Part shown: positions 2,642 through 21,910 of the stretch, piece by piece | Layout: the number at the start of each line of letters is the position of its first letter | Numbering within the stretch: the first letter of the stretch is position 1 | IMG/VR virus record: IMGVR_UViG_3300027905_000005 | Location: 1-21,910 of that record | Origin: a virus | Length of the DNA: 21,910 nt | Direction: 5' to 3' (one strand) | The notes under the pieces: model-generated | Databases searched by the model: none | Told to the model about the DNA's origin: nothing | Seen by the model: the letters and a program-made list of their open reading frames with translations, nothing else | Translations under genes and position numbers: made by a program

Positions 2642-3865
2642 ATGCTTTCCGATGAAGTCGAGACGGCGCAAACCGTGTCGCTCATGGATGAACTTTCCGA
2701 ACAAGACGCGGCCCACCGGCTTGTGATCGATGCCACGGCGCGCGCCCTTGATGAAGATGGTTTGACGTTCGATGCTTCACCGCTGGAAAAGACGGTAGCG
2801 ATTTACTGGTTCCTGAAAAGGAGTATCAGATATGTACCCACCGAAGGCACCAGCCCATTAGTCGATCAGACTTTGATTCCACCAGCCACACTTTTGGCGA
2901 TGCCAGATCCGGAGGGCGACTGTCCCCAGTTCTCAATGCTGGCATCGGCCATGCTCCGCGTGTGTTGCATTCCGAGTTTCTATAAGACCATCGCGGCGGC
3001 GGAAGAGTACCCGAACACCTACAGCCACATCTACAACATGGTGGACGTTGGCGGCGGTTCGTTCATGCCTTTCGATTCGTCGAACGGCCCCGCCCCCGGC
3101 GCGGAGTTTGCGCACCCTTATAAGGCGCGCGTGTGGCCACAGATAAGAAAGATCACCTGTGACGGGACCGCACCTTCCCGCGATCGAGGCGTCACGAGTG
3201 ACAGGGCGCCCGCGACGATGGGCCGGCCCGTCACGCGTGACGCGGCCGGAAGCTTTCAGCCGCGGCAAGTCACGAAAGGAAATCGAGCCATGCAGCGAAT
3301 GAGAAACGCCCCCGTGGGAAATCGCAACGCTATTCTGAGACGCGGGTTGCAGCATGGCCACCTGTTCTATCCGCTTCAGGGTTTGCGGCGACTCGGCCAG
3401 GACGATGGCAGCGATATAGCCGATACGTTCTCATCCGGCCCCGGTTCAGCCACGCCCGATTACTACACTCCGGCCACGACGAGCGGCCCGACGTGCGGAG
3501 TAGATATCGCGTGCGGTTCGAACCCGACAGCGGCGGAACTGGCCAACGCGGGGTTTCCCCTGGCGACCGCGATTGCAACCGCACCCAGCCCCGTCACCGG
3601 CAATTCGTCCCCGAGCCCCACCACACTGGCGGCAGCTCTCGCAGCCGACGCCACGCAACTGGTTTCGCCGATCATCAAGGCGGCAACGCAGCAACAGCCG
3701 TACTACATCACGAACCCGCAGACCGGCCAGTCAGTTCTCTACAACCCGAACACCGGAGGCACGGCGGGAACATTCGGCGCAAGCCTTTCATCACTTAGTC
3801 CGACCACGATTCTGATAGGCGTGGTTCTCATCGGAGCCCTGGCCATGTTCAGCGGGAAGAAATGA
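2642..3865 (+). CDS. Transglutaminase-like cysteine-protease-fold protein, followed by a low-complexity linker and a C-terminal membrane anchor.
   Basis: Cys/His/Asp arrangement GDCPQFSMLASAMLRVCCIP ... YSHIYNMV ... PFDSSNG with transglutaminase-core-like spacing. ATG 2642 has GAGGA at 2624-2628; the alternative TTG at 2555 is the track start. C-terminus TTILIGVVLIGALAMFSGKK. An internal Met at 3290 has its own RBS-like AAAGGAAA. Confidence 0.55.
   Translation: MLSDEVETAQTVSLMDELSEQDAAHRLVIDATARALDEDGLTFDASPLEKTVAIYWFLKRSIRYVPTEGTSPLVDQTLIPPATLLAMPDPEGDCPQFSMLASAMLRVCCIPSFYKTIAAAEEYPNTYSHIYNMVDVGGGSFMPFDSSNGPAPGAEFAHPYKARVWPQIRKITCDGTAPSRDRGVTSDRAPATMGRPVTRDAAGSFQPRQVTKGNRAMQRMRNAPVGNRNAILRRGLQHGHLFYPLQGLRRLGQDDGSDIADTFSSGPGSATPDYYTPATTSGPTCGVDIACGSNPTAAELANAGFPLATAIATAPSPVTGNSSPSPTTLAAALAADATQLVSPIIKAATQQQPYYITNPQTGQSVLYNPNTGGTAGTFGASLSSLSPTTILIGVVLIGALAMFSGKK
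3152..3273. promoter_or_regulatory. Repeat array A: four sites phased at 39 bp, lying in frame inside CDS 2642..3865.
   Basis: ATCACCTGTGAC at 3152, GTCACGAGTGAC at 3191, GTCACGCGTGAC at 3230, and a GTCAC half-site at 3269. GGGCCGGCCCGTCAC at 3220-3234 and GTGACAGGGCGCCCGC at 3198-3213. Confidence 0.8.
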
Positions 3866-4584: not shown

Positions 4585-5117
4585 TGCACACCCTGAGAGG
4601 ACCGGCCCGCCGAATCGCCATCGTCCAGGTTCCGCGCACGCAACTGAACCGGCTGGGAAGAATCGGGAGCATTCGAGAGGAAGACTGGTCGATTATTCCG
4701 AGCGGGTTTACACAGCTCACCGATGAACCTTACATGCCCGCGCAACCGACCGACGCCAGCGGGCAGAAAGTAACCAGCCCGCCGACAACTTCACAGTGGA
4801 TAGCTTCCATTATCCAGGCGCAATCGACGGCGCGCGAATCGACCCCCGGCACTTTGATCTATACCCCGGCGCCACGCGTGGCGGCGCCCGTCGTGGCGCG
4901 CTGGAACAGTTGGGCGGGTCCCTGCGCCACCGCCACACCCGGCGATGCCAGCTCGAGCGCGGGAAACGGCAACGGCACCGTGACCGCAACCGATTCGACG
5001 GCCACACCACCAGCGGCTACCGGACTGAACATTCCAGGAATCCTTTACGTGGCGGCGGCGTTGGGCGCGTTCGCATCGGCGGCGTACTTACTTGACAGTC
5101 TGACGGGAAGGAAATAG
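4581..5117 (+). CDS. C-terminally anchored Ser/Thr/Pro/Ala-rich protein.
   Basis: ATGA overlap with the upstream stop. C-terminus NIPGILYVAAALGAFASAAYLLDSLTGRK. Confidence 0.55.
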   Translation: MMHTLRGPARRIAIVQVPRTQLNRLGRIGSIREEDWSIIPSGFTQLTDEPYMPAQPTDASGQKVTSPPTTSQWIASIIQAQSTARESTPGTLIYTPAPRVAAPVVARWNSWAGPCATATPGDASSSAGNGNGTVTATDSTATPPAATGLNIPGILYVAAALGAFASAAYLLDSLTGRK

Positions 5118-6697: not shown

Positions 6698-7143
6698 TAC
6701 GCAACGTCCCCGAGGCCGTGGGTGTAATCGATCGGTCGATTCTGAAATGGAGATCGCAGCACCTTCGTGGCGCGTGTTGCAGCGCGTGCGGAGCCACGGG
6801 CGGACATTGCGGCGAAACCGGCCCGCCCATCGGCGCGCCCGCCCAGCACACACACAAGACGTTCGGCGTTTTGGGCGACGTGCAATGCGATCAGGACGGC
6901 AACTGTTACGACAGCTCAACCGGCGAACTGCTTTCGAGCCCGGCGGAAGCGGCGGCGGGAAACCCGGCCTACATCATGAGCGGCCCGAATCCGACAGCGC
7001 AGCAGATAGCGGCGGGAATGCCATCGGCGGGAATGCCCTCTACCGTATCGTCGGTTTCGGCGTGGTTCTCTAACAACTCAGCCACCCTTGTGGGTTTGGG
7101 CGCACTCGTCGGAGTGCTGGCCTTCGTAAGCGGGCGCAGATGA
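6694..7143 (+). CDS. Cys-rich, C-terminally anchored protein.
   Basis: ATGA overlap. It starts MIRNV, like the gene at 3862. Contains CCSACGATGGHCG. C-terminus ATLVGLGALVGVLAFVSGRR. Confidence 0.6.
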   Translation: MIRNVPEAVGVIDRSILKWRSQHLRGACCSACGATGGHCGETGPPIGAPAQHTHKTFGVLGDVQCDQDGNCYDSSTGELLSSPAEAAAGNPAYIMSGPNPTAQQIAAGMPSAGMPSTVSSVSAWFSNNSATLVGLGALVGVLAFVSGRR

Positions 7144-7847
7144 GCAAACTACGCGGACAAGCCAAGGCCGAATTTCTGGCGCGCATGGCGAAGGGACGGA
7201 AGAAGGCGGCGCGCGGCAACCCGAAGGCCAAAAAGAGCGTGACGGGCCGGCCCAAACACAAAGCTGCAGCGTCACGCAACGCGGGACCCCGCAGCGTGCG
7301 CAAGAGCAAAAAGGCGATGAAAAAGTTTCTGCCTGGGTTCAAGCGCAAGAAGCGGCGGAATCAGGAAGACAGCATCGAGAGCGCGGCGGAAAAGTTCGCT
7401 GAGTTCCACGGCAAGCCCCCGGGCCGCATCGTCGAATACGAACAGGGTTACAACTACCCGGAGAACTACGCGGAGATGGGCAAGCTGAAAGAGCTTCGGT
7501 TCGACCTGAATACGCTGAACCGCGATTTCCCGCTTTCCAATTTCAAGGACTGTCAGGCGGTCTGCACACCGGACGGGAGCAACATCTATTTCATCGGCGG
7601 CGATCAGCGCATCGACTTCGAGGCGCTCGATATCGCCAGCGACAAAGATTTCGTGGAGCTTGGCCCATGCCGCTACATCATGTACCACACCGTGAAAGGG
7701 TTCCACGATTTTGACCCAACGGACTACTGGCACCGATTCGGCGAAGAGAACAACATCTTTCCGGTTCTGGCCTACGACCGTTTGAACCACACGCTCTTTT
7801 TGATCGGCGGAGACTACCGCGTCAGACCCGAAGGAATCGTGAACTGA
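7140..7847 (+). CDS. Protein with a highly basic (Lys/Arg-rich) N-terminal region of about 75 aa and a globular C-domain. Putative internal / DNA-associated virion protein.
   Basis: ATGA overlap. N-terminus KGRKKAARGNPKAKKSVTGRPKHKAAASRNAGPRSVRKSKKAMKKFLPGFKRKKRRN. The C-domain carries a repeated FIGGDxR motif (IYFIGGDQRI, LFLIGGDYRV). Confidence 0.6.
   Translation: MSKLRGQAKAEFLARMAKGRKKAARGNPKAKKSVTGRPKHKAAASRNAGPRSVRKSKKAMKKFLPGFKRKKRRNQEDSIESAAEKFAEFHGKPPGRIVEYEQGYNYPENYAEMGKLKELRFDLNTLNRDFPLSNFKDCQAVCTPDGSNIYFIGGDQRIDFEALDIASDKDFVELGPCRYIMYHTVKGFHDFDPTDYWHRFGEENNIFPVLAYDRLNHTLFLIGGDYRVRPEGIVN
7239..7275. promoter_or_regulatory. Repeat array D: two half-sites inside CDS 7140..7847.
   Basis: GTGACGGGCCGGCCC at 7239-7253 and GTCAC at 7271-7275, in the same 39-bp phase as arrays A and B. 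Confidence 0.7.
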
Positions 7848-10308: not shown

Positions 10309-10802
10309 TGGCAGGCAGTTATATTACTTCGAGCCCCGCCGTTCTCAGCCCTTACAACCTACAGCTTGAGCAGCGGCGGAACACTCTGGCGACGGCGATC
10401 CGCTACGCCCTCACGCCCGGATGCAACCCCATCACGGGCAAACCGAACCTCACGCCCAACCAACTGCGAAAGCAGCTTCTTTCGGTTCCGATCAACGCGA
10501 CCGTGGCGGGAGACAATCCGCTCATCCCCACGACTTCCGGCCCCATCAGCATTTACGAAGTGGTGATCTGGAACGCATCGGCCGCACCGGTGAACCTTAC
10601 TTTTTTCCAAGGCGGATCGGGCGGCATTCTGTTGTTGCCTCTGCCGAATTTTCCAGCGACTACAGGGTTTACGCTTGGGTTCAACGGTTCTTTCGATCAA
10701 CCCCATTTCGAGATCGACAGCGGGCAGCAGTTCGTTTTGAACCTTTCGACCGCTGGCCCCGTTACCGGGATGTGCCGCTACAAGATTCAGAACGGCACAT
10801 GA
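10308..10802 (+). CDS. Beta-rich structural protein candidate, 164 aa.
   Basis: ATG 10308 overlaps the upstream stop (TGATG). It is the internal Met of track ORF 10164..10802, whose upstream part overlaps the previous gene. Confidence 0.5.
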   Translation: MAGSYITSSPAVLSPYNLQLEQRRNTLATAIRYALTPGCNPITGKPNLTPNQLRKQLLSVPINATVAGDNPLIPTTSGPISIYEVVIWNASAAPVNLTFFQGGSGGILLLPLPNFPATTGFTLGFNGSFDQPHFEIDSGQQFVLNLSTAGPVTGMCRYKIQNGT

Positions 10803-10811
10803 TGAGGCGGC

Positions 10812-10926
10812 GTGACACTCCGGAGGCGCGCGGCGGGCGCCCTGTCACCGTGACGGGCCGGCCCAGGCACGCGCCGGCAGCGTCACATGTGACGAGTCGA
10901 CGCGTTGAAGGCCCCAGCTCAGTCAC
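10812..10926. promoter_or_regulatory. Repeat array B: fills the intergenic gap upstream of the capsid-candidate gene.
   Basis: GTGAC at 10812-10816. GCGGGCGCCCTGTCAC-C-GTGACGGGCCGGCCC at 10833-10864. GTCACATGTGAC at 10882-10893. GTCAC at 10922-10926, abutting ATG 10927. Spacings are 38-40 bp. Confidence 0.8.
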
Positions 10927-12030
10927 ATGCAACCGCTGACTTTCAAGGGCGCGCTGAACGTCGGGCTTTTCAAACTGCCGTACCAGGTCCCCAACCCTTC
11001 TTTCATCACGCCATATCGTTGGATGCCCGATTCATGGAGTTTGTCAGACGACATCGCAGGGACCACGCGCACGCTCAGATTGTTGCGCCTAACGGCCCCC
11101 GTGGTGAACGTCCTCTCTAACACCGGGCCATCAGCGCCGAACGGAGGGCAAGGAAGCATATGGGGCGCGCAGGCGCTACGCGGAACCCTGGACGGCCTGA
11201 ACAATGCCGACGCGTGTCTGTATGCCACTCCGCTAACCGGAGGCCCCTACGCGTCCGACGACAATCTTTTCGTGCCACTGTCAACAACCGGCGCGCCCGC
11301 TGGAGGATTCGGCGCGAACCCGGCCATCGTTCCGCTGGCGACGGACGCGGGAGATGTGAAATTCGCATCGTACGGCGAGGACATCACCTTCACCACTCAA
11401 TACCGGCTGTTGACCCCGGCGACCTTCACGCCACAGCAGGGATGGTTTGTTTCTCCATCGACTCCGCTCTTACCGCCGAACCTTCAAGCCTACTGGCCCG
11501 ACGCGCCGAACAAAAGAAACCGCAGCATCAATCAGGGTCTTTTCGGACTGACGAACATCATAGATTTTTTTCTCAGCGCGGACGGTTCGACGCTCACCCA
11601 GGCGACCATCGAGCAAAGCCCGCTCACCGGAAATTCGACGGTGGATTCACCGATGTACCAGCAGCCGAATCAGGCGAACGGGTTCTACATCACCGCCGAC
11701 AATTCGGGAGGCCCCGCCCCCGTCATACCCAACGGCTCACCGATCTTTTTCATTGCGGGCGATCTTAGCGCCTGGTGGGAGCTTGTCTTTTTCGCGGCGG
11801 GACCCGGCGTCAACCCGAACGATTTGGGCGGCTATGGCCCGCCGTGGGATTACGCGGCGGCCCCGCAGATCACGAGCGATGCAGAGGGGAATATCTACTA
11901 CCTGCAAAACAACGTGGCCACACCCGGATTCATGGACGTGTACAGCGGGAAGCTTCCGGGCGGCGGCTCATTCGGCGGAACTTTCGTCAGCTTCATAGTT
12001 CCCAATCAACTGGCAGGAGGCAACAAATGA
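10927..12030 (+). CDS. 367-aa virion protein; major capsid protein candidate. Size is compatible with a double jelly-roll, but the fold is unverified.
   Basis: ATG 10927 is the first start after the in-frame TGA at 10906-10908. It sits directly behind the repeat array 10805-10926. Long clean ORF just upstream of the fibre gene. No sequence motif identifies the fold. Confidence 0.55.
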   Translation: MQPLTFKGALNVGLFKLPYQVPNPSFITPYRWMPDSWSLSDDIAGTTRTLRLLRLTAPVVNVLSNTGPSAPNGGQGSIWGAQALRGTLDGLNNADACLYATPLTGGPYASDDNLFVPLSTTGAPAGGFGANPAIVPLATDAGDVKFASYGEDITFTTQYRLLTPATFTPQQGWFVSPSTPLLPPNLQAYWPDAPNKRNRSINQGLFGLTNIIDFFLSADGSTLTQATIEQSPLTGNSTVDSPMYQQPNQANGFYITADNSGGPAPVIPNGSPIFFIAGDLSAWWELVFFAAGPGVNPNDLGGYGPPWDYAAAPQITSDAEGNIYYLQNNVATPGFMDVYSGKLPGGGSFGGTFVSFIVPNQLAGGNK

Positions 12031-13901
12031 GCGCACCGATTCTTACGCACGCGGCGACCACCTTGGGGTTGAACTTTCAATACCCACTCCAGAGCACGCA
12101 GGACAGCGAACCCACGGTAGAAATCGTTCCGGGCGCAAGCGGCCAGGTGCTCACGTCGAACCCGGCAGCACCGGGCGGCGTTGACTGGGAGACACCGAGC
12201 CCCGGCTTTACAAATCCCATGACCACGAAAGGAGACATCATCGCGGCAGGCGTTGGAGGGACACCGGCGCGGGTGGCTGTAGGAACCAACGGTCAGGTGC
12301 TCACGGCGAATTCAGCGGCGGCGGATGGCGTTGACTGGGAGACACCGAGCCCCGGCTTTACAAATCCCATGACCACGAAAGGGGATGTGATCGCGGGCGG
12401 CGTGGCGGGCGCACCGGCGCGACTGGGAGTAGGAACCAACGGCCAGGTGCTCACGGCGAATTCGGCGGCGGCGGATGGCATCGACTGGGAAACGCCCTTC
12501 ACAAGTCCGATGACTACGAAGGGCGATTTGATCGCGGGCGCGGCGGGCGGCATCCCGGCGCGCGTGGGAGTGGGAATCAACGGCCAGGTGCTGACCGCGA
12601 ATTCGGCGGCGGCGGACGGCGTCGATTGGGAAACACCCAGCGCGGGTTTCGCCAATCCGATGACTACCAAAGGCGATCTGATCGCGGGCGCGGCGGGCGG
12701 CATCCCGGCGCGCGTGGGAGTGGGAATCAACGGCCAGGTGCTCACCGCGAATTCCGCGGCGGCGGACGGCATCGATTGGGAAACAGCGGCAACGGGAACC
12801 GTTACTAACAGCAGCGGCGCTCTGACGGCGGACCTTCCAGTTTTCGGCAATGGGGCGGCGGACGTAAAAGTAGGAACAAAAACCGGAAACACCGATAAGC
12901 TGGTAACCCAGGCAGGCGCGGCCACCAGCGGCGCTCCATTGCTCTATGACGCATCCGGCAACGCGATAGCAGGGAGCAAGACCGGCAACACGTCCGAACT
13001 CGTCACAGCGACTGGCGCGGCCACCAGCGGCTATCCGTTGCTCTATGACGCATCAGCCAACGCCATTGGCCAACAGCCACGCGGGAACACGACAGTGGTA
13101 CAGCTTGCCGATTCCACGACAAACCCGACCAGCGGAGACCTAACCAGTTTCGACGCCAACGGGAACGTGATGGATTCCGCGATTCTGGCCAGCGCTGTGG
13201 CTCTGACGGCAAACGTCGTACCCAAAACGCGCAACGTAAATACAGCGGCCCCGCTTGCGGGCGGCGGCGGTCTCAGCGCCGATCTGAATTTGACGATCGC
13301 AACCGCAGGCGTGGGAACGCTAGGCGCATCGAGCCCGGACGGAACGACTATCGCCGTGACAGCGGGAGTTTATCGCGTGCTGACTCCGGCAGCGCCGAGC
13401 GGCGCTGCATTCTCACAGGATGCCCCATGGTTCACCACATCGAGTTCGAACTGGCAAAATCTGACTCTGTTTTGCCGTATCCGAGGTTGGACACTTTCGG
13501 CATTCCCGGCGAGCTGGACGGTGAAGATTTTGTTTCTTGCCGGAAGCCCCGTAATCGGCAATATGGTCATCCTGAAAACGATTGCCGCAGGTCCCACCGT
13601 TGGCGTGGCGGTTATCTCCACCACTTCAGTAACCATCGGAGGCGTGAGCAATCCGACGCTGGTAACTCCGTCGATTGTGACGACGGACGCCATCACCCTG
13701 GCACTCGACAACGCGCATGAATTTTATTTCCTGATCTTTTTCGCCAACAACGCGGCGAACGTGGCGGTAAGCCTGGGAGCAACCCCGGCCACGACCGGCA
13801 ACACTTTCGATATCTCCGGAGATCAAACCGGCATCAGCAGTCTACCGGCACTGGGAGCCGGAAACGGCAGTGTAGGGATCATGGGTCTATTCTTCCCATA
13901 G
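12027..13901 (+). CDS. Fibre / spike (receptor-binding) protein with tandem 50-aa repeats.
   Basis: ATG 12027 overlaps the upstream stop (ATGA), with GGAGG at 12016-12020. There are 4.3 repeats of GQVLTANSAAADG(V/I)DWETPSPGFTNPMTTKGD.IAG..G..AR.GVG.N, then two 33-aa repeats (KTGNT..LVT..GAATSG.PLLYDAS.NAI). The track start 11775 lies inside the previous gene. Confidence 0.7.
   Translation: MSAPILTHAATTLGLNFQYPLQSTQDSEPTVEIVPGASGQVLTSNPAAPGGVDWETPSPGFTNPMTTKGDIIAAGVGGTPARVAVGTNGQVLTANSAAADGVDWETPSPGFTNPMTTKGDVIAGGVAGAPARLGVGTNGQVLTANSAAADGIDWETPFTSPMTTKGDLIAGAAGGIPARVGVGINGQVLTANSAAADGVDWETPSAGFANPMTTKGDLIAGAAGGIPARVGVGINGQVLTANSAAADGIDWETAATGTVTNSSGALTADLPVFGNGAADVKVGTKTGNTDKLVTQAGAATSGAPLLYDASGNAIAGSKTGNTSELVTATGAATSGYPLLYDASANAIGQQPRGNTTVVQLADSTTNPTSGDLTSFDANGNVMDSAILASAVALTANVVPKTRNVNTAAPLAGGGGLSADLNLTIATAGVGTLGASSPDGTTIAVTAGVYRVLTPAAPSGAAFSQDAPWFTTSSSNWQNLTLFCRIRGWTLSAFPASWTVKILFLAGSPVIGNMVILKTIAAGPTVGVAVISTTSVTIGGVSNPTLVTPSIVTTDAITLALDNAHEFYFLIFFANNAANVAVSLGATPATTGNTFDISGDQTGISSLPALGAGNGSVGIMGLFFP
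12141..12790 (+). repeat. Coding tandem repeat, period 150 nt with one 141-nt unit, about 4.3 copies.
   Basis: Units begin with GG(C/T)CAGGTGCT at 12141, 12291, 12441, 12582 and 12732. Long stretches are identical at the DNA level between units 1 and 2 and between units 3 and 4. Confidence 0.9.
12879..13076 (+). repeat. Coding tandem repeat, period 99 nt, 2 copies.
   Basis: KTGNTDKLVTQAGAATSGAPLLYDASGNAIAGS / KTGNTSELVTATGAATSGYPLLYDASANAIGQQ, with the shared DNA core GGCGCGGCCACCAGCGGC...TTGCTCTATGACGCATC. Confidence 0.85.
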
Positions 13902-14121: not shown

Positions 14122-14541
14122 ATGGGTTCGAATTTTCCCCCAGGCACACCACCAATCGGCTACACCGAAGCGTTTTCACTAACCGGACTCGTTGCGGCTC
14201 TCACAACCCGCACGATGTACACCGCGCAGGTTGCAGGGCTTTACGCAGTGGGTTTTTGCTGCAACATCGTGGCCACGAACAAAGCGGGAACCATTGCCTG
14301 CACGCTGGGAACCCCCCACGCTGGCACCGTCGTCGTAGGCGTAGCGCCAGCGGCCCCCGGCGATACTCAGACAGCCATCGAGCAGGACCCGGCCTTAGGA
14401 GGCGCAACGCCCGTCGATGGGTACAGCGCCATGATTCCCGTGTGGATGAATGCGGGCGATGTGGTGACCTTTGCCACCGCCGTGGGAGGTTTAACAGGAA
14501 CCACCTACAACGTGTACGTGGCGGTTCAGCGCCTGCTTTAA
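14122..14541 (+). CDS. Small beta-rich protein, 139 aa. Possibly a fibre-associated or receptor-binding accessory protein.
   Basis: ATG 14122 lies 3 nt after the upstream stop and is preceded by GGAGAAGAG. The C-terminal segment (GYSAMIPVWMNAGDVVTFA ... YNVYVAVQRLL) loosely resembles the end of C1q/TNF-like jelly-roll domains. Confidence 0.5.
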   Translation: MGSNFPPGTPPIGYTEAFSLTGLVAALTTRTMYTAQVAGLYAVGFCCNIVATNKAGTIACTLGTPHAGTVVVGVAPAAPGDTQTAIEQDPALGGATPVDGYSAMIPVWMNAGDVVTFATAVGGLTGTTYNVYVAVQRLL

Positions 14542-15509
14542 CCCCGCCGATTCCGGCGAGGAGGACCTGCAGCAACACCGGAAACGGCGATATCGGCCGT
14601 CACCGTTCGAAGTGGCGATGGTGACCGGCGCGGCGCGCCGTTTCCGGCGATGGTGGACGTCGCAGGCAGCTCCGTTTTCAGCGATGGGGGATCCAAATCC
14701 ACTTCACCGATAGCAGCCAGCAGCGCCCGCCGTTCGAGCAAAGGCATTCGCCGAATCTTATTCACCCACCGCAGCTTTTTTCGTTTGATCCGTTCCCGTG
14801 CGCGGAAGTCCCCGCCGAGATACGTATAGTCATGCAGCGCCACCGGCTCAGGAAAGTTACACCAGAGCCATTCCGTTCGAGGCGTTCCCCCCCGCGTCAT
14901 AGTCTGATACTGCACCGTATCCCAGCCCGAAAGAAATTCGGCGTAGCGTTCGGACCAGTAACCCGAGATCATCACCCGGCAGGGCAGGCGGCGCAGAATC
15001 GACAAGAGCAACATATGGTCCAGGTCGTTCAGCTCGCATCGGTAGATATCACGAGGACCACGCGTTTCACGCATGTAGGGCGGATCACAGTACACCAGCT
15101 CCGAGCCCCCGAAGGGATAGGCCGAAAGGAAGGGAATCGCATCACCGTGGAACAAATGCCACGCGGGTCCGGCCACGTCGTTTTTGGCGATCCCGGCCCG
15201 TTTTCCACTTTTGAACAGCCCCACAATCGCTTCAGGTGCTTTCGGCGCGGCCTTCCCAATAGCTGAGGACCCGGAAACGCGAGAGCGCGATCGCTCAACG
15301 CCGGAAATGGCGATTCCTCCGGCGGAATCGCTGAAAGTGACGAGGGGATCCAAATTCAGATCGATTCCGATGTTCAGCAGCGCGGGTTTCTTCAGGCGCA
15401 TGATGGCACCCCCGCCCAGAAACGGTTCGAGGTACACGTCATGCGGCGGCATCCGGTTAATGATGGTCTGAAAAACACCGGCCCCGTTCTTTCCGCCCGG
15501 ATACGTCAA
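14538..15509 (-). CDS. N6-adenine DNA methyltransferase, Dam-like (D12 class).
   Basis: N-terminal YPGGK, motif I EPFLGGGAI and catalytic DPPY (LVYCDPPYM). TTG start at 15509 has GGGGAGG 5 nt upstream and overlaps the stop of the upstream methyltransferase (TTGA). Confidence 0.85.
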   Translation of the reverse strand: MTYPGGKNGAGVFQTIINRMPPHDVYLEPFLGGGAIMRLKKPALLNIGIDLNLDPLVTFSDSAGGIAISGVERSRSRVSGSSAIGKAAPKAPEAIVGLFKSGKRAGIAKNDVAGPAWHLFHGDAIPFLSAYPFGGSELVYCDPPYMRETRGPRDIYRCELNDLDHMLLLSILRRLPCRVMISGYWSERYAEFLSGWDTVQYQTMTRGGTPRTEWLWCNFPEPVALHDYTYLGGDFRARERIKRKKLRWVNKIRRMPLLERRALLAAIGEVDLDPPSLKTELPATSTIAGNGAPRRSPSPLRTVTADIAVSGVAAGPPRRNRRG

Positions 15510-16321
15510 AGTGTGCCTCCCCGGGTGACAACGCCCCGCGCGGCGTCACGCTTGCGTTCCATCCGTTTCCTACAGGCGGGACCCGCCGATATCGCCTTGC
15601 CCTTCACAGGGCGCGCGCAACCGCACACACACAACCGGATGGAATCACCCGGCACCGGCGAAACGACAGCCCCCGCTATGAAGCGCGCCACTTCGAGATG
15701 CACCCCGTTACCCACGGCCCGATACTTTGCGCCGAGCGTGAAGGAAGGAAGATCAAAATCCGAGGGCAAGCCCTGCAATGCACAGAAGGCCCCGAAGTCC
15801 CGGCGCGTTCCCCCCGTCGAAGCCAGCAAAGTGGGAGCTGGCATCGACGGCCCCGACGATGGACGCTGCAGATAGAGCACGTATCCGGCCCGATGGCCGA
15901 ATTGAAAGTGACGGAGGCGGCGTTGCCCCACGCCCAAATGTTTGGCGTCGATATCGATTCTCTGATGGCTGTAACCGGCAATCGGAACGTCAGGGCACCC
16001 CGGCACGTTTTCGAGGAGCCACCAGCGCGGGCGCACTTCGAGAACGACCCGGCGGAACTCCCGCAGCATTTCGACACCGTACCCGCTGGGAGCCCCACGG
16101 CGCGCGCGCGAGAAGTCCGGGCAGGGTGAACCCGCTATCACTCCATCGAAGCGGCCAGCGGGCGCGTGGAACTCTCTTATATCCCCGCCGAAAATCAAAT
16201 TGGGACCCCGCACAACGCTGAACCCCTGGGATTCGAACCCACGTCCCAGCAGATCGATGCCTGGAAAGAGCGAAAGAACCAGTTGTGACGAGTAGCTACG
16301 TTTCCGGCGATGTGCGCCCAC
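15506..16321 (-). CDS. DNA (cytosine-5) methyltransferase, compact at 271 aa, with a Cys-rich C-terminal tail.
   Basis: Motif I LFPGIDLLGRGF, motif IV GSPCPDFS, motif VI LLENVPG, motif VIII-like HLGVGQRRLRHF, motif X YRAVGNGV. The C-terminal CVCGC...C could be a zinc ribbon. The GTG start at 16321 is uncertain because the RBS is too close. Confidence 0.85.
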   Translation of the reverse strand: MGAHRRKRSYSSQLVLSLFPGIDLLGRGFESQGFSVVRGPNLIFGGDIREFHAPAGRFDGVIAGSPCPDFSRARRGAPSGYGVEMLREFRRVVLEVRPRWWLLENVPGCPDVPIAGYSHQRIDIDAKHLGVGQRRLRHFQFGHRAGYVLYLQRPSSGPSMPAPTLLASTGGTRRDFGAFCALQGLPSDFDLPSFTLGAKYRAVGNGVHLEVARFIAGAVVSPVPGDSIRLCVCGCARPVKGKAISAGPACRKRMERKRDAARGVVTRGGTL

Positions 16322-20104: not shown

Positions 20105-20335
20105 TCCCGATGCAGCGGCCCCCAGGCGGCGCGACAGGAAGGCGAGGAAGGAGTGGGGACTATCGGCCCGCCGAGGGCGGGCGGGAAGGCCCCGCAGCCC
20201 GCCAGCAACGTACACCGATGGACTGGCAGCGGCCCGGATCACACGATAAGTATATGTGACCGAGCTGGACCCCGCGCACGAATCGAGGAACAGGGGAATC
20301 TTATTCCCCGTGGACGCGGCGCGCCCCACGACATT

Positions 20336-20396
20336 GGGCCGGCCCGTCACCCTTTTTTTGTGACCCGGCCGGGTTTCTTCAGCCGCGGTTAATCAC
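20336..20396. promoter_or_regulatory. Repeat array C: lies in the divergent region between 19583..20104 (minus) and the plus-strand replication side.
   Basis: GGGCCGGCCCGTCAC-CCTTTTTTT-GTGACCCGGCCGGG...CAGCCGCGG..AATCAC. It is colinear with array A positions 3220-3273 apart from the inserted T7 tract. Confidence 0.8.
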
Positions 20397-20669
20397 GTGC
20401 GAGTGGGTCAGTGGGTCCCGTCGCTTCACCCACAAACTCACTCGGACGCGAAAGATTTTCCTCTACCCTCTAAAGACAATAAAGACGGGCGCGCCGAAGT
20501 GTTGTCGCCCGCGACCACAAATCTGGAGTGGCGGGCGGGAACAAACAAAAGGCGAACGCGTGTAGTAGTGGACAACCACACTGATGAGCCCAACCCGCTG
20601 AGGCCATTCGATGAGGCTCAGAAAGTAACTGAAGTTATACCGGGAACCGACGAAAAAGAAAGTCCTTGA
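20397..20669 (+). CDS. Questionable ORF, 90 aa. The region may instead be non-coding regulatory sequence or RNA.
   Basis: GTG start buried in a 45-nt hairpin, no RBS. Third-position GC is visibly lower than in the well-supported genes. Confidence 0.25.
   Translation: MRVGQWVPSLHPQTHSDAKDFPLPSKDNKDGRAEVLSPATTNLEWRAGTNKRRTRVVVDNHTDEPNPLRPFDEAQKVTEVIPGTDEKESP
20400..20444 (+). other. Extended stem-loop: 9 bp + 6 bp with a symmetric 2-nt internal loop.
   Basis: CGAGTGGGT-CA-GTGGGT-cccgtcgcttc-ACCCAC-AA-ACTCACTCG. The single G-T wobble would be tolerated only in a plus-strand RNA. Confidence 0.5.
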
Positions 20670-20876: not shown

Positions 20877-20998
20877 AAAGGCCACCCCCCCAACAAACCG
20901 CGTCGGTAAAACGCGATCACATTGACCTGAAGCCAGCGTACCAGATCAGGCTCAGGCAGGAAAGGAAATTCTACTGCCTATGGCCAGCCCAGCTTTAA
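20873..20998 (+). CDS. Possible 41-aa ORF, below the track length cutoff.
   Basis: ATG 20873 overlaps the upstream stop (ATGA), with GAGGAG at 20859-20864. It overlaps the rep start by 19 nt. Translation MKRPPPQQTASVKRDHIDLKPAYQIRLRQERKFYCLWPAQL. Confidence 0.3.
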   Translation: MKRPPPQQTASVKRDHIDLKPAYQIRLRQERKFYCLWPAQL

Positions 20999-21910
20999 AA
21001 CCGCAGGCCCCACGGCCCCAACGCATCCAACCGATCCGCGAGGGCGCGGAAGACGGCATCAGAGGTTTTACCAAACAGCCCCACGAATACGAGTACCTTG
21101 TGACCGGCAACAAGCTTTCCGGGTTGCTGCAATCGAACTTACTCTACTGGATCGGGCGCAACACATGGGGCAAAGCGAATCGGCCCGAATGGGCGCGCCT
21201 GTCCATCACCGAACTGGCCAAGCTGTGCGGCGAAGTGGAACGCAAGAGCGTGGCCACGGCCCTGGCCGATCTACTCGAACGCGGCATCATCGCAGCGCCC
21301 GACCGCAACGGTTGCGCGGCAAACACGCCGAAGATGTACAAGCTGTGCCCGGAGAACTGGCGGAAGGCACCGAGCTATAAACCGCCCGTCGATCCCGAGC
21401 TGGTCAAACTCGCAAAGCAGGTGGAGGCGGGATGGCAAGCGGACGCGGAAGAAGACGAACACCCCGAACGGATCGTAGCGCCCGGAAAATCTTCGAAGCC
21501 CATGACCGTGGCGCTCCCCCGCAAAGACGCGGAGCCGTTCCCGGTCAGGATCGTGTACTATTGTGAGTTCGACGAGCCGGTATCTTTCCGCGCGCGTCCA
21601 GGCCGCAACGGTCGATTGAATGTCACCGCTTGCCGACCGGCAGCCACGGCCCCGCCGTGTAGTCCTGCACAACTACACACGTTCGCCAATCCTTCGCCAC
21701 CCGTTGAAGAAAACACGGAGCTTGCGCGATACCGTGCTTACCTGTTTCCATTGGTCATGAATTTGTGGGACACGGGAACCGACGAAGCTTTCATCCGATC
21801 AGTTTTCGAGCTGGCGGCGGGCGCACCGCTTGGAACTTTTCAAGACCAGGTGGCGCTCAAATTTCCGAACCCGAAGGAGGCGCGCAAACACAAGCCTGGT
21901 CTGTTGCGGA
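20980..21910 (+). CDS. Replication initiator / replisome organizer, 5' part. It continues through the junction to 387, about 426 aa in total. The N-terminal region resembles the winged-helix domain of phage lambda O / replisome-organizer proteins.
   Basis: ATG at 20980 is the first start after the in-frame TGA at 20923-20925. The ORF is open to the window end and in frame with 1-387. The segment LLYWIGRNTWGKANRPEWARLSITELAKLCGEVERKSVATALADLLERGII matches the pattern of phage Rep-O N-terminal domains (aromatic-x-R-x-T-W/Y-G, then 'is..eLa..tg.s...v..al..L...g.I'). Confidence 0.65.
   Translation, partial: MASPALKPQAPRPQRIQPIREGAEDGIRGFTKQPHEYEYLVTGNKLSGLLQSNLLYWIGRNTWGKANRPEWARLSITELAKLCGEVERKSVATALADLLERGIIAAPDRNGCAANTPKMYKLCPENWRKAPSYKPPVDPELVKLAKQVEAGWQADAEEDEHPERIVAPGKSSKPMTVALPRKDAEPFPVRIVYYCEFDEPVSFRARPGRNGRLNVTACRPAATAPPCSPAQLHTFANPSPPVEENTELARYRAYLFPLVMNLWDTGTDEAFIRSVFELAAGAPLGTFQDQVALKFPNPKEARKHKPGLLR
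21874..21910. repeat. Terminal direct repeat, right copy.
   Basis: Exact 37-nt copy of positions 1-37. Confidence 0.9.

Follow-up and report, generated by a model that had tools for sequence, protein, structure and literature searches.

The stretch of DNA analysed here, the 21,910 nucleotides of the viral record IMGVR_UViG_3300027905_000005 (hereafter the window), has identical ends (bases 1–37 equal bases 21874–21910) and is a complete circle, or a terminally redundant molecule, of 21,873 bp. It belongs to a large, unannotated family of metagenomic contigs of ~19–22 kb, and almost none of its proteins were matched by Pfam or PHROG. The coding sequence (CDS) at 2642–3865 specifies a transglutaminase-like protein with over 100 homologues, encoded on metagenomic contigs of about this size (~19–22 kb); no relatives of the gene were found in IMG/VR or among GenBank phages. 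Three tandem copies of a 37-bp element occupy 3159–3273, within the linker of this protein (aa ~173–211). As originally noted, the reading frame is uninterrupted across them and yields a 13-aa periodic peptide; a period of 39 bp, or 13 codons, is what preserves the frame. Further copies are scattered over the window, and arrays of the same kind are found in many otherwise unrelated phages and prophages at the flanks or termini of a gene for a small C5 cytosine DNA methyltransferase, an enzyme that the window also encodes. Tentatively, we regard them as docking or target sites of that methyltransferase.

The original prediction described the region as a series of 12-bp palindromic sites exactly 39 bp apart. 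These are all present (ATCACCTGTGAC at 3152, GTCACGAGTGAC at 3191, GTCACGCGTGAC at 3230, and a GTCAC at 3269), as are the GC-rich blocks GGGCGCCC and GGGCCGGCCC interleaved between the GTCAC/GTGAC sites, and TGGGCCGGCCCGTCAC recurs, as stated, at 7237–7254, 10849–10865 and 20334–20350. The array is thus real, but its phase had been misread. The conserved unit is GTGAC-N27-GTCAC rather than the palindrome formed where two units meet, because a solitary unit exists at 7239–7275 and the junctions between units are variable (their length is 1, 2 or 9 nt in the window, and L057 has one of 11 nt; sequences used for comparison carry such L numbers). The left half of the first 12-bp site, ATCAC, lies outside the element and is ancestral I-T-C codon sequence, the nearest relative without an array having GTC ACA TGC at this position. 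In the closest array-less relative (L010, 2307–2318), GTCACATGCGCC (V-T-C-A) aligns with window positions 3152–3163, at the start of the first unit, and the pre-existing GTCAC there may have been the insertion or recombination site of the array.

Exact copies of GTGAC-N27-GTCAC begin at six positions of the window (3159, 3198, 3237, 7239, 10812 and 10850), whereas 1000 dinucleotide-preserving shuffles contained 0.017 on average and never more than 1. One further copy has an interior of 28 nt (10889), and two are decaying (20312 and 20360). The block GTCACNNGTGAC, with at most one mismatch, is found 4 times where 0.52 are expected. GTSAC as such is neither enriched nor avoided in the window (47 observed, 46.5 expected), and therefore only its phasing is special. 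An assembly artefact is excluded, since two independent assemblies (L011 from JGI and L012 from Logan) carry the identical array.

All three units at 3159, 3198 and 3237 have the inverted 5-bp ends GTGAC...GTCAC and the fixed interior length, which is 27 nt in the clade of the window; units from 18 further loci are built in the same way. Read inward on its own strand, each unit end is a 10-bp half-site, GTGAC-N4-C, whose last base is the cytosine at the centre of a short restriction-type palindrome (the one classically methylated), in a fixed register. The palindromes at this position (C10) include TCGA, AGCT, CCGG, CCWGG, GCGC and GGCC, and are often extended to CGATCG, GCCGGC, GGCGCC, CGGCCG, CCGCGG, CTGCAG or GTCGAC. 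All 16 array half-sites of the window (including the 6 of the array at 3159–3273) have C at position 10, compared to 7 of the 31 other GTSAC sites. When the window and 18 further loci are pooled, the figure is 93% of 134 distinct half-sites. Among loci of an independent set, collected by protein similarity only, C10 is present in 78% (56/72) of sites beside the methyltransferase gene and in 29% of the 174 sites elsewhere. Single palindromes are enclosed by compact units in L046, with the inner C at position 10 on both strands: AGCT in an interior of 8 nt, CCCGGG in one of 10, and CCWGG in one of 11. The centre-to-centre spacing of half-sites is 32 bp, about three helical turns.

In the 71 distinct units from the window and the same 18 loci, no stem complementarity was found past the five terminal pairs, and pairing there is what column composition predicts. 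Folding of every unit and array showed that a few units are more stable than their shuffled counterparts (z = −2.1 to −2.7), while several units and whole arrays are not. Rfam gave no match at the gathering threshold in the window and five loci. Members of the family that lack GTGAC units were searched for arrays of inverted 5-mers with other anchors, and none were found. A pattern scan also returned GTGAC-N7-GTCAC, a 17-bp palindrome repeated with a 20-bp period and iteron- or operator-like in appearance, in L030 (1186–1262), L033 (2003–2079) and L039 (4754–4850); this is a different, unrelated repeat, and these three were rejected as carriers of the 37-bp unit.

Among 30 aligned homologues of the transglutaminase-like protein, the repeat segment is present in the window and its 79% relative only. 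In the other 28, the interval from an invariant Cys173 to an invariant Met217 is spanned by 5–22 residues without an array. The ~78% relatives (L009, L013, L014) have three units with every GTGAC and GTCAC intact, those of the first unit included, and with diverged interiors. Between the window and L013, the anchors and palindromes are kept, while the N4 spacers and the unit centres vary. Outside the array, identity to L013 at first, second and third codon positions is 0.84, 0.88 and 0.60; inside, it is 0.81, 0.90 and 0.83. This high third-position identity, 0.83 against 0.60, indicates that constraint acts on the nucleotides. The earlier view of a cis-acting DNA element rather than a protein-driven repeat is therefore upheld, as units are read in different frames, occur in non-coding DNA, and have conserved third positions. 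Conservation at the protein but not the DNA level, named at the time as part of the evidence that would indicate an ordinary linker repeat, was looked for, and the opposite was found. On these comparisons the array was recently inserted, in this lineage only, into the hypervariable linker between the domains, and it is the DNA and not the peptide on which selection acts to maintain it.

The methyltransferase is predicted with confidence to have the C5-methyltransferase fold (mean predicted local distance difference test score, pLDDT, 87), its best structural matches being M.HaeIII, M.HhaI and DNMT3A. Only about 40 aa separate motifs VIII and IX, compared to ~120 aa of target-recognising domain in M.HaeIII. 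A C-terminal motif, CxCxCGR..G[KR]..ACRKRxxRRR, is nearly invariant and is common to all homologues examined. The family is large, with ~3,578 members at E <= 1e-10, and its association with arrays was examined at ~25 loci among ~3,500 homologues. Carriers were found in two ways, by scanning IMG/VR for two adjacent units and by a search with the methyltransferase protein that was blind to the repeats. The first returned clusters of units directly on one or both flanks of a methyltransferase homologue of 55–67% identity. In the second, units or GTSAC clusters abut the gene in L041–L046, L048 and L049. Arrays abut homologues of 42–67% identity in L031, L032, L034/L041, L036–L038, L040 and L042–L046, and also lie beside the gene in the cultured corticovirus Pseudoalteromonas phage GXT1010 (MK424903), in an integrated element of the Methylomonas sp. 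BW4-1 chromosome (CP184125.1, around 2,313,275–2,314,270), and, within the window's own family, in L052, L053 and L059. One carrier, L032, is an inovirus (Zot, G2P, coat B) without any other gene in common with the window; the methyltransferase is the only gene common to the window and the other array-bearing phages. The array at 3159–3273 is itself ~12 kb from such a gene, but the same genome encodes the enzyme and has vestigial units at both ends of its gene. Features of the window are collected in Table 1.

Table 1. Units of the GTGAC-anchored family and associated genes and signals in the window.
Feature	Position	Strand	Description
CDS	2642–3865	+	Transglutaminase-core domain, hypervariable linker, C-terminal membrane-anchored domain
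Unit A1	3159–3195		Half-sites GTGAC GGGA C (GGACC) and, on the other strand, GTGAC GCCT C (TCGA/CGATCG)
Unit A2	3198–3234		Half-sites bear GGGCGCCC (GCGC) and GGGCCGGCCC (CCGG)
Unit A3	3237–3273		Half-sites bear CGGCCG/GGCC and CCGCGG
Shine–Dalgarno-like motif AAAGGAAA	3275–3282	+	Nucleotide sequence conserved throughout the family; codon phase varies
Nested in-frame open reading frame (ORF)	3290–3865	+	191 aa, from invariant Met217; separate gene in L055/L056
Solitary unit B	7239–7275		Within the basic N-terminal part of CDS 7140–7847, in frame
Units C1, C2, C3	10812–10926		C1 10812–10848, C2 10850–10886, C3 10889–10926 (N28)
D12-class (Dam-like) adenine methyltransferase homologue	14538–15509	−	Directly downstream of the C5 methyltransferase; context only
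Small C5 cytosine DNA methyltransferase	15506–16321	−	271 aa; reduced target-recognition region; C-terminal CxCxCGR...ACRKRxxRKR motif
Short element GTGAC-N15-GTCAC	15525–15549	−	Last codons of the C5 methyltransferase ORF
Vestigial unit GTGGG-N27-GTCAC	16285–16321	−	5' end of the C5 methyltransferase ORF
Decaying units D1, D2	20312–20396		D1 20312–20350 (GTGGAC...GTCAC), D2 20360–20396 (GTGAC...ATCAC); adjoins a putative replication/regulatory region

The other units of the window differ in setting and in state. Unit B is read in another frame than the units at 3159–3273 and is missing from L013, which has an unrelated segment of 184 bp instead. The C units take up the whole gap between a stop codon at 10802 and an ATG at 10927, where L013 has a single N30 unit; this locus and the D locus are both non-coding. 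At the D locus, L014 has one intact N28 unit plus a second unit. Unit A2 is ~88% identical to the degenerate D1, and A3 is 76% identical to D2. Relative to the vestigial unit at the 5' end of the methyltransferase gene, L059, the closest relative there, has 111 bp more, in frame, including an intact unit. Besides the methyltransferase gene, units of this lineage thus occupy four positions that tolerate insertions. An ORF of 426 aa runs across the window ends (20980–21873 joined to 1–387; L011 2921–4201), has weak HTH_36 and DnaA_N-like matches, and may encode a replication initiator; upstream of it are the D1/D2 units and non-coding DNA containing AGTGGGTC AGTGGGTC (20402–20417).

Arrays at the 5' end of the methyltransferase gene are in frame with an upstream start codon in L057 (6001–6170), L032 (4585–4720) and L059 (2102–2240), with a period of 48 or 39 bp or as an indel of 111 bp; they probably add a translated extension to the N terminus of the enzyme. 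A second motif, ATCGCCGGAAACG, has 9 copies in the window with at most two mismatches (1.3 expected), located at 14548–14685, 15179, 15297 and 16299, and also at 4956 and 18834. Seven of the nine are inside the operon of the two methyltransferases, one of them just after the start codon of the C5 enzyme, and four are in or beside a 34-bp tandem repeat at 14614–14687. In L052 and L053, palindromes of the form ATCGCC...GGCGAT overlie the methyltransferase promoter. It is possible that ATCGCCGGAAACG and ATCGCC...GGCGAT are operators.

Immediately after the last GTCAC of the array come AAAGGAAA and the ATG at 3290, as originally described, and a nested product of 191 aa had been proposed to start there. 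Comparison of relatives supports this proposal well. All 30 aligned homologues have Met217, and each of the 14 family sequences in which the ATG was located has, upstream of it, a Shine–Dalgarno sequence of the AAGGAA type, which other genes of the window also use; its codon phase and the residues it encodes differ. In L055 and L056 the gene is split, and a gene of 196 aa begins exactly at the homologous Met, with 56% identity to 3290–3865 over its full length. The N-terminal protein of these two loci (L055 3500–4775, L056 10001–11963) has 227 aa and its own C-terminal membrane anchor, followed by a stop codon. The ATG at 3290 is thus very likely to be a real start. Separate genes for the transglutaminase-like and C-terminal parts, which the original proposal suggested looking for, are thus present in L055 and L056, and the array is confined to the window and its ~78% relatives. 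To call the protein a fusion is misleading, since the two-domain ORF is the usual state in the family. Nested in-frame genes with an internal start are familiar from lambda (C/Nu3), T7 (gene 4A/4B) and phiX174 (A/A*), and here too an in-frame internal Shine–Dalgarno sequence and ATG would give a C-terminal product beside the full-length protein. In the window this is supported by sequence comparison, and concerns the start neighbouring the array rather than the array itself.

The genome of the window strongly avoids 6-bp palindromes. Outside the arrays, palindromes of 6 bp number 222, compared to 407 expected. Several of those found at C10 are far below expectation (observed versus expected: GCCGGC 2 vs 20.6; GGCGCC 2 vs 25.7; CCGCGG 3 vs 18.7; CGATCG 3 vs 16.7). 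CAGCTG, GAGCTC, GCATGC, GTCGAC and TCGCGA are absent outside the arrays, GGCGCC and GCCGGC are at ~0.1 of expectation, and GCGCGC, TGGCCA and GATATC show no avoidance. The arrays amount to 376 bp (1.7% of the genome) and hold 15 of the 42 copies of palindromes with an observed/expected ratio of at most 0.27. This enrichment would fit a protection of anchored sites.

In the model that we favour, the methyltransferase would dock on the GTGAC anchor. Its conserved C-terminal Cys-rich/basic module is the probable means of contact, given its very small target-recognition region, and the enzyme would then methylate the cytosine five nucleotides from the anchor. Such methylation would let a few anchored palindromes exist in a genome that otherwise purges them. 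The arrays would be the cis-acting partner of a horizontally mobile methyltransferase cassette, with a role in autoregulation and/or in making the phage dependent on the enzyme, or as decoy sites. We put the probability at about 0.45 that the three tandem 37-bp units, as members of the family of arrays placed at the flanks and termini of the small methyltransferase gene, serve as docking or target sites of its product; it is more likely that the repeat is a target of this enzyme than that it is the internal promoter first proposed. A more specific version, which we consider distinctly unlikely, is a 'ruler' enzyme that would read GTGAC and methylate any C five nucleotides away, the arrays forming an inherited and rapidly evolving list of restriction sites that would otherwise be forbidden and that no other enzyme can protect. 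Sites at the methyltransferase gene and inside essential genes would then turn the restriction enzymes of the host into the toxin of an addiction module, blocking loss of the cassette by the phage; alternatively, the sites would act as protected decoys or as sensors for restriction enzymes.

Several observations weigh against the docking model. The four arrays of the window are 4–12 kb from the methyltransferase gene; L047 has a homologue with the C-terminal motif and no arrays, and a tailed-phage contig (L029/L035) has arrays and no detectable methyltransferase. Units have been gained, lost and are decaying among close relatives, a pattern that also fits selfish or neutral DNA. The palindromes of the arrays are not significantly more avoided in the window than other palindromes (Mann–Whitney p = 0.24), and in the other carriers, when pooled, avoidance outside the arrays is weak. 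Binding of the enzyme to GTGAC, and likewise methylation at C10, are inferred purely from the DNA sequence, and we know of no precedent for a C5 methyltransferase that measures from an external anchor.

The main rival is that the units are passengers, either small mobile palindromic insertions (like REP elements, Rickettsia palindromic elements or GC clusters) or the solo remnants of methyltransferase cassettes that were inserted and then deleted, surviving only where insertions are tolerated and with no function at 3152–3273. On balance we hold this to be unlikely, though by a limited degree. Their turnover agrees with it (unit B is missing in L013, locus C has one unit there and three in the window, and the 5' end of the methyltransferase gene differs by 111 bp in frame), as does the decay of D1 and D2, the resemblance of the block A2–A3 to D1–D2, which suggests copying, and the fact that all positions are linkers, termini or gene junctions. 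Against it stands the purifying selection seen at the DNA level on anchors, C10 and palindromes between the window and L013; moreover, the predicted proteins scanned with Pfam include no transposase, no transposase of the RAYT type (the family associated with repetitive extragenic palindromic, REP, sequences) and no integrase, and the C10/palindrome rule and the link to one methyltransferase family would be left unexplained. One variant, GTGACGGGCCGGCCC-N17-GTCAC, gave only 8 scattered single matches in 185,579 reference genomes and none in IMG/VR; a host REP-like origin was rejected on this result. We see a slim chance that some other DNA-binding protein, from host or phage, binds GTGAC...GTCAC in dimeric or tetrameric form, for instance so as to mask the palindromes or organise the DNA. 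The half-sites have two-fold symmetry and read the same on either strand, their spacing is near three helical turns, and the L029/L035 arrays occur without a methyltransferase. Yet inovirus, corticovirus, integrated-element and 21-kb-family carriers have no gene but the methyltransferase in common, and any host factor common to all of them would need to be present in Acidobacteria-type soil hosts, in Pseudoalteromonas and in Methylomonas.

Hairpins in RNA or single-stranded DNA, acting as terminator, messenger RNA stabiliser or modulator of translation at the downstream start, are improbable. A 5-bp stem can form in every unit, a few units fold better than shuffles, units often end 0–2 nt before a Shine–Dalgarno sequence or start codon, and many carriers are inoviruses with single-stranded DNA; but pairing stops at the 5-bp ends, shuffled sequences fold as well as several of the units and whole arrays, units lie in either orientation to transcription, and neither T-tract terminators nor Rfam matches were seen. 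More improbable still is an internal promoter or operator driving a nested transcript for the 191-aa product, even though the array is immediately upstream of a well-supported Shine–Dalgarno sequence and ATG, and the 12-bp junction palindromes resemble operators. The other 28 aligned homologues are without the array, and the 11 array-less relatives whose DNA was read all retain the Shine–Dalgarno sequence and ATG, so that the array is not the promoter or operator of the nested product. The start at 3290, in all likelihood real, is an older, family-wide feature, and the array merely landed beside it. A scan of 2900–3500, restricted to sigma-70-like −35/−10 hexamers with 16–18 nt spacing, gave none, and the three multi-unit array regions yielded no relevant promoter or terminator. 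The junction palindromes are not conserved either, given the solitary unit at 7239 and linkers of 9 and 11 nt, and the same elements are inside or around methyltransferase genes of unrelated phages. Scarcely tenable, finally, is an ordinary 13-aa linker repeat of the protein. The open frame and periodic peptide speak for it, but unit B and the units in methyltransferase ORFs are in other frames, two loci are non-coding, and third codon positions inside the array are conserved like the first and second; we take it as refuted by the frame and codon-position data.

The arrays were also compared to known repeat classes. REP sequences and the bacterial interspersed mosaic elements (BIMEs) that they form are extragenic imperfect hairpins of conserved sequence, recognised by RAYT transposases. 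Like the present arrays, they consist of units of ~35–40 bp, often in tandem clusters and scattered over the genome. An identity with them was rejected, since the units here have no stem along their length, include intragenic, in-frame copies, are accompanied by no RAYT or other transposase-like domain among the proteins scanned, and were matched at chance level in the chromosome scan for one variant. Rickettsia palindromic elements (RPEs), which are 100–150 bp long with conserved sequence and real hairpin potential, and the GC clusters of yeast mitochondria are, like the arrays, short, GC-rich, palindrome-bearing insertions that are in frame, leave a tolerated linker peptide, and are variable in presence. 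The units differ from these in being 37 bp long, with only the 5-bp ends and one C conserved, in lacking stem complementarity, and in being tied to a methyltransferase gene. Integron attC sites and gene cassettes (R''/R', RYYYAAC/GTTRRRY, 57–141 bp) do not agree with ends of GTGAC/GTCAC and units of 37 bp, and no integrase was among the proteins scanned. A CRISPR (clustered regularly interspaced short palindromic repeat) array or solitary repeat would have identical repeats of at least 23 nt between unique spacers, while the constant part here is only 5 + 5 nt, and no Rfam CRISPR model matched. Intrinsic terminators or a structured RNA family were rejected as there are no terminator-like sites at the arrays and Rfam gave 0 matches, and a C-protein operator (GACT-N3-AGTC) because the spacing is N27 and no small helix–turn–helix controller gene is beside the methyltransferase in the loci examined.

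Closer parallels come from methyltransferases. M.EcoRII and M.MspI are C5 methyltransferases with autoregulatory binding sites at their own genes. The same is described for SsoII (PMC3978073). Like the sites of these three enzymes, the arrays are cis-acting DNA beside a C5-methyltransferase gene, and presumably bound by the enzyme. The known cases differ in having a single operator or cognate promoter site, whereas here tandem arrays flank the gene on either side and also lie within the ends of its ORF, one constant anchor is combined with many palindromes at a fixed offset of 5 nt, and copies are dispersed to other genes. The Bacillus phages SPR, phi3T and rho11s have multispecific anti-restriction C5 methyltransferases, which possess several target-recognising domains in the protein and act genome-wide. 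The enzyme of the window would resemble them as a phage-borne C5 methyltransferase concerned with several restriction-type palindromes (CCGG, GGCC, CCWGG, GCNGC), but it is almost without a target-recognising domain, and the diversity of sites would be written in the DNA of the arrays. Action at a position set by a fixed distance from an anchor is known from type IIS and type III restriction–modification systems, and from the box C/D '+5' rule of RNA 2'-O-methylation. As would be the case for the proposed enzyme, the position modified or cut is given by distance and not by local sequence; the distance rule of the window differs in being deduced from sequence statistics. To our knowledge, such measured-distance action is not known for C5 DNA methyltransferases. 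A variable dcm gene has been reported in Pf prophages (PMC7549136).

Elsewhere in the window, an ORF of 708 aa (11775–13901), which matches PHROG tail-fibre and virion structural families, contains tandem repeats of 150 bp (~4.4 copies, 12056–12785) and of 99 bp (2 copies, 12862–13059).

No prior description of such arrays was found in the open-access full-text literature, and Rfam has no model for them, so GTGAC-anchored arrays are apparently of an undescribed kind. If the proposed mechanism is true, this would be the first C5 DNA methyltransferase with a target set by distance from an anchor rather than by local sequence, and a widespread phage accessory gene (~3,500 homologues) would travel with its own cis-acting DNA, carrying varied palindromes in a fixed register. 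It would also tie, in a testable way, the avoidance of restriction sites by phage genomes to a mechanism through which some few of them can persist. As the arrays are present in two cultured systems, Pseudoalteromonas phage GXT1010 and Methylomonas sp. BW4-1, these ideas are open to direct test. Independently of the arrays, a large and uncharacterised family of circular elements of ~21 kb has, on the good evidence of this comparison, a gene that is nested or split.

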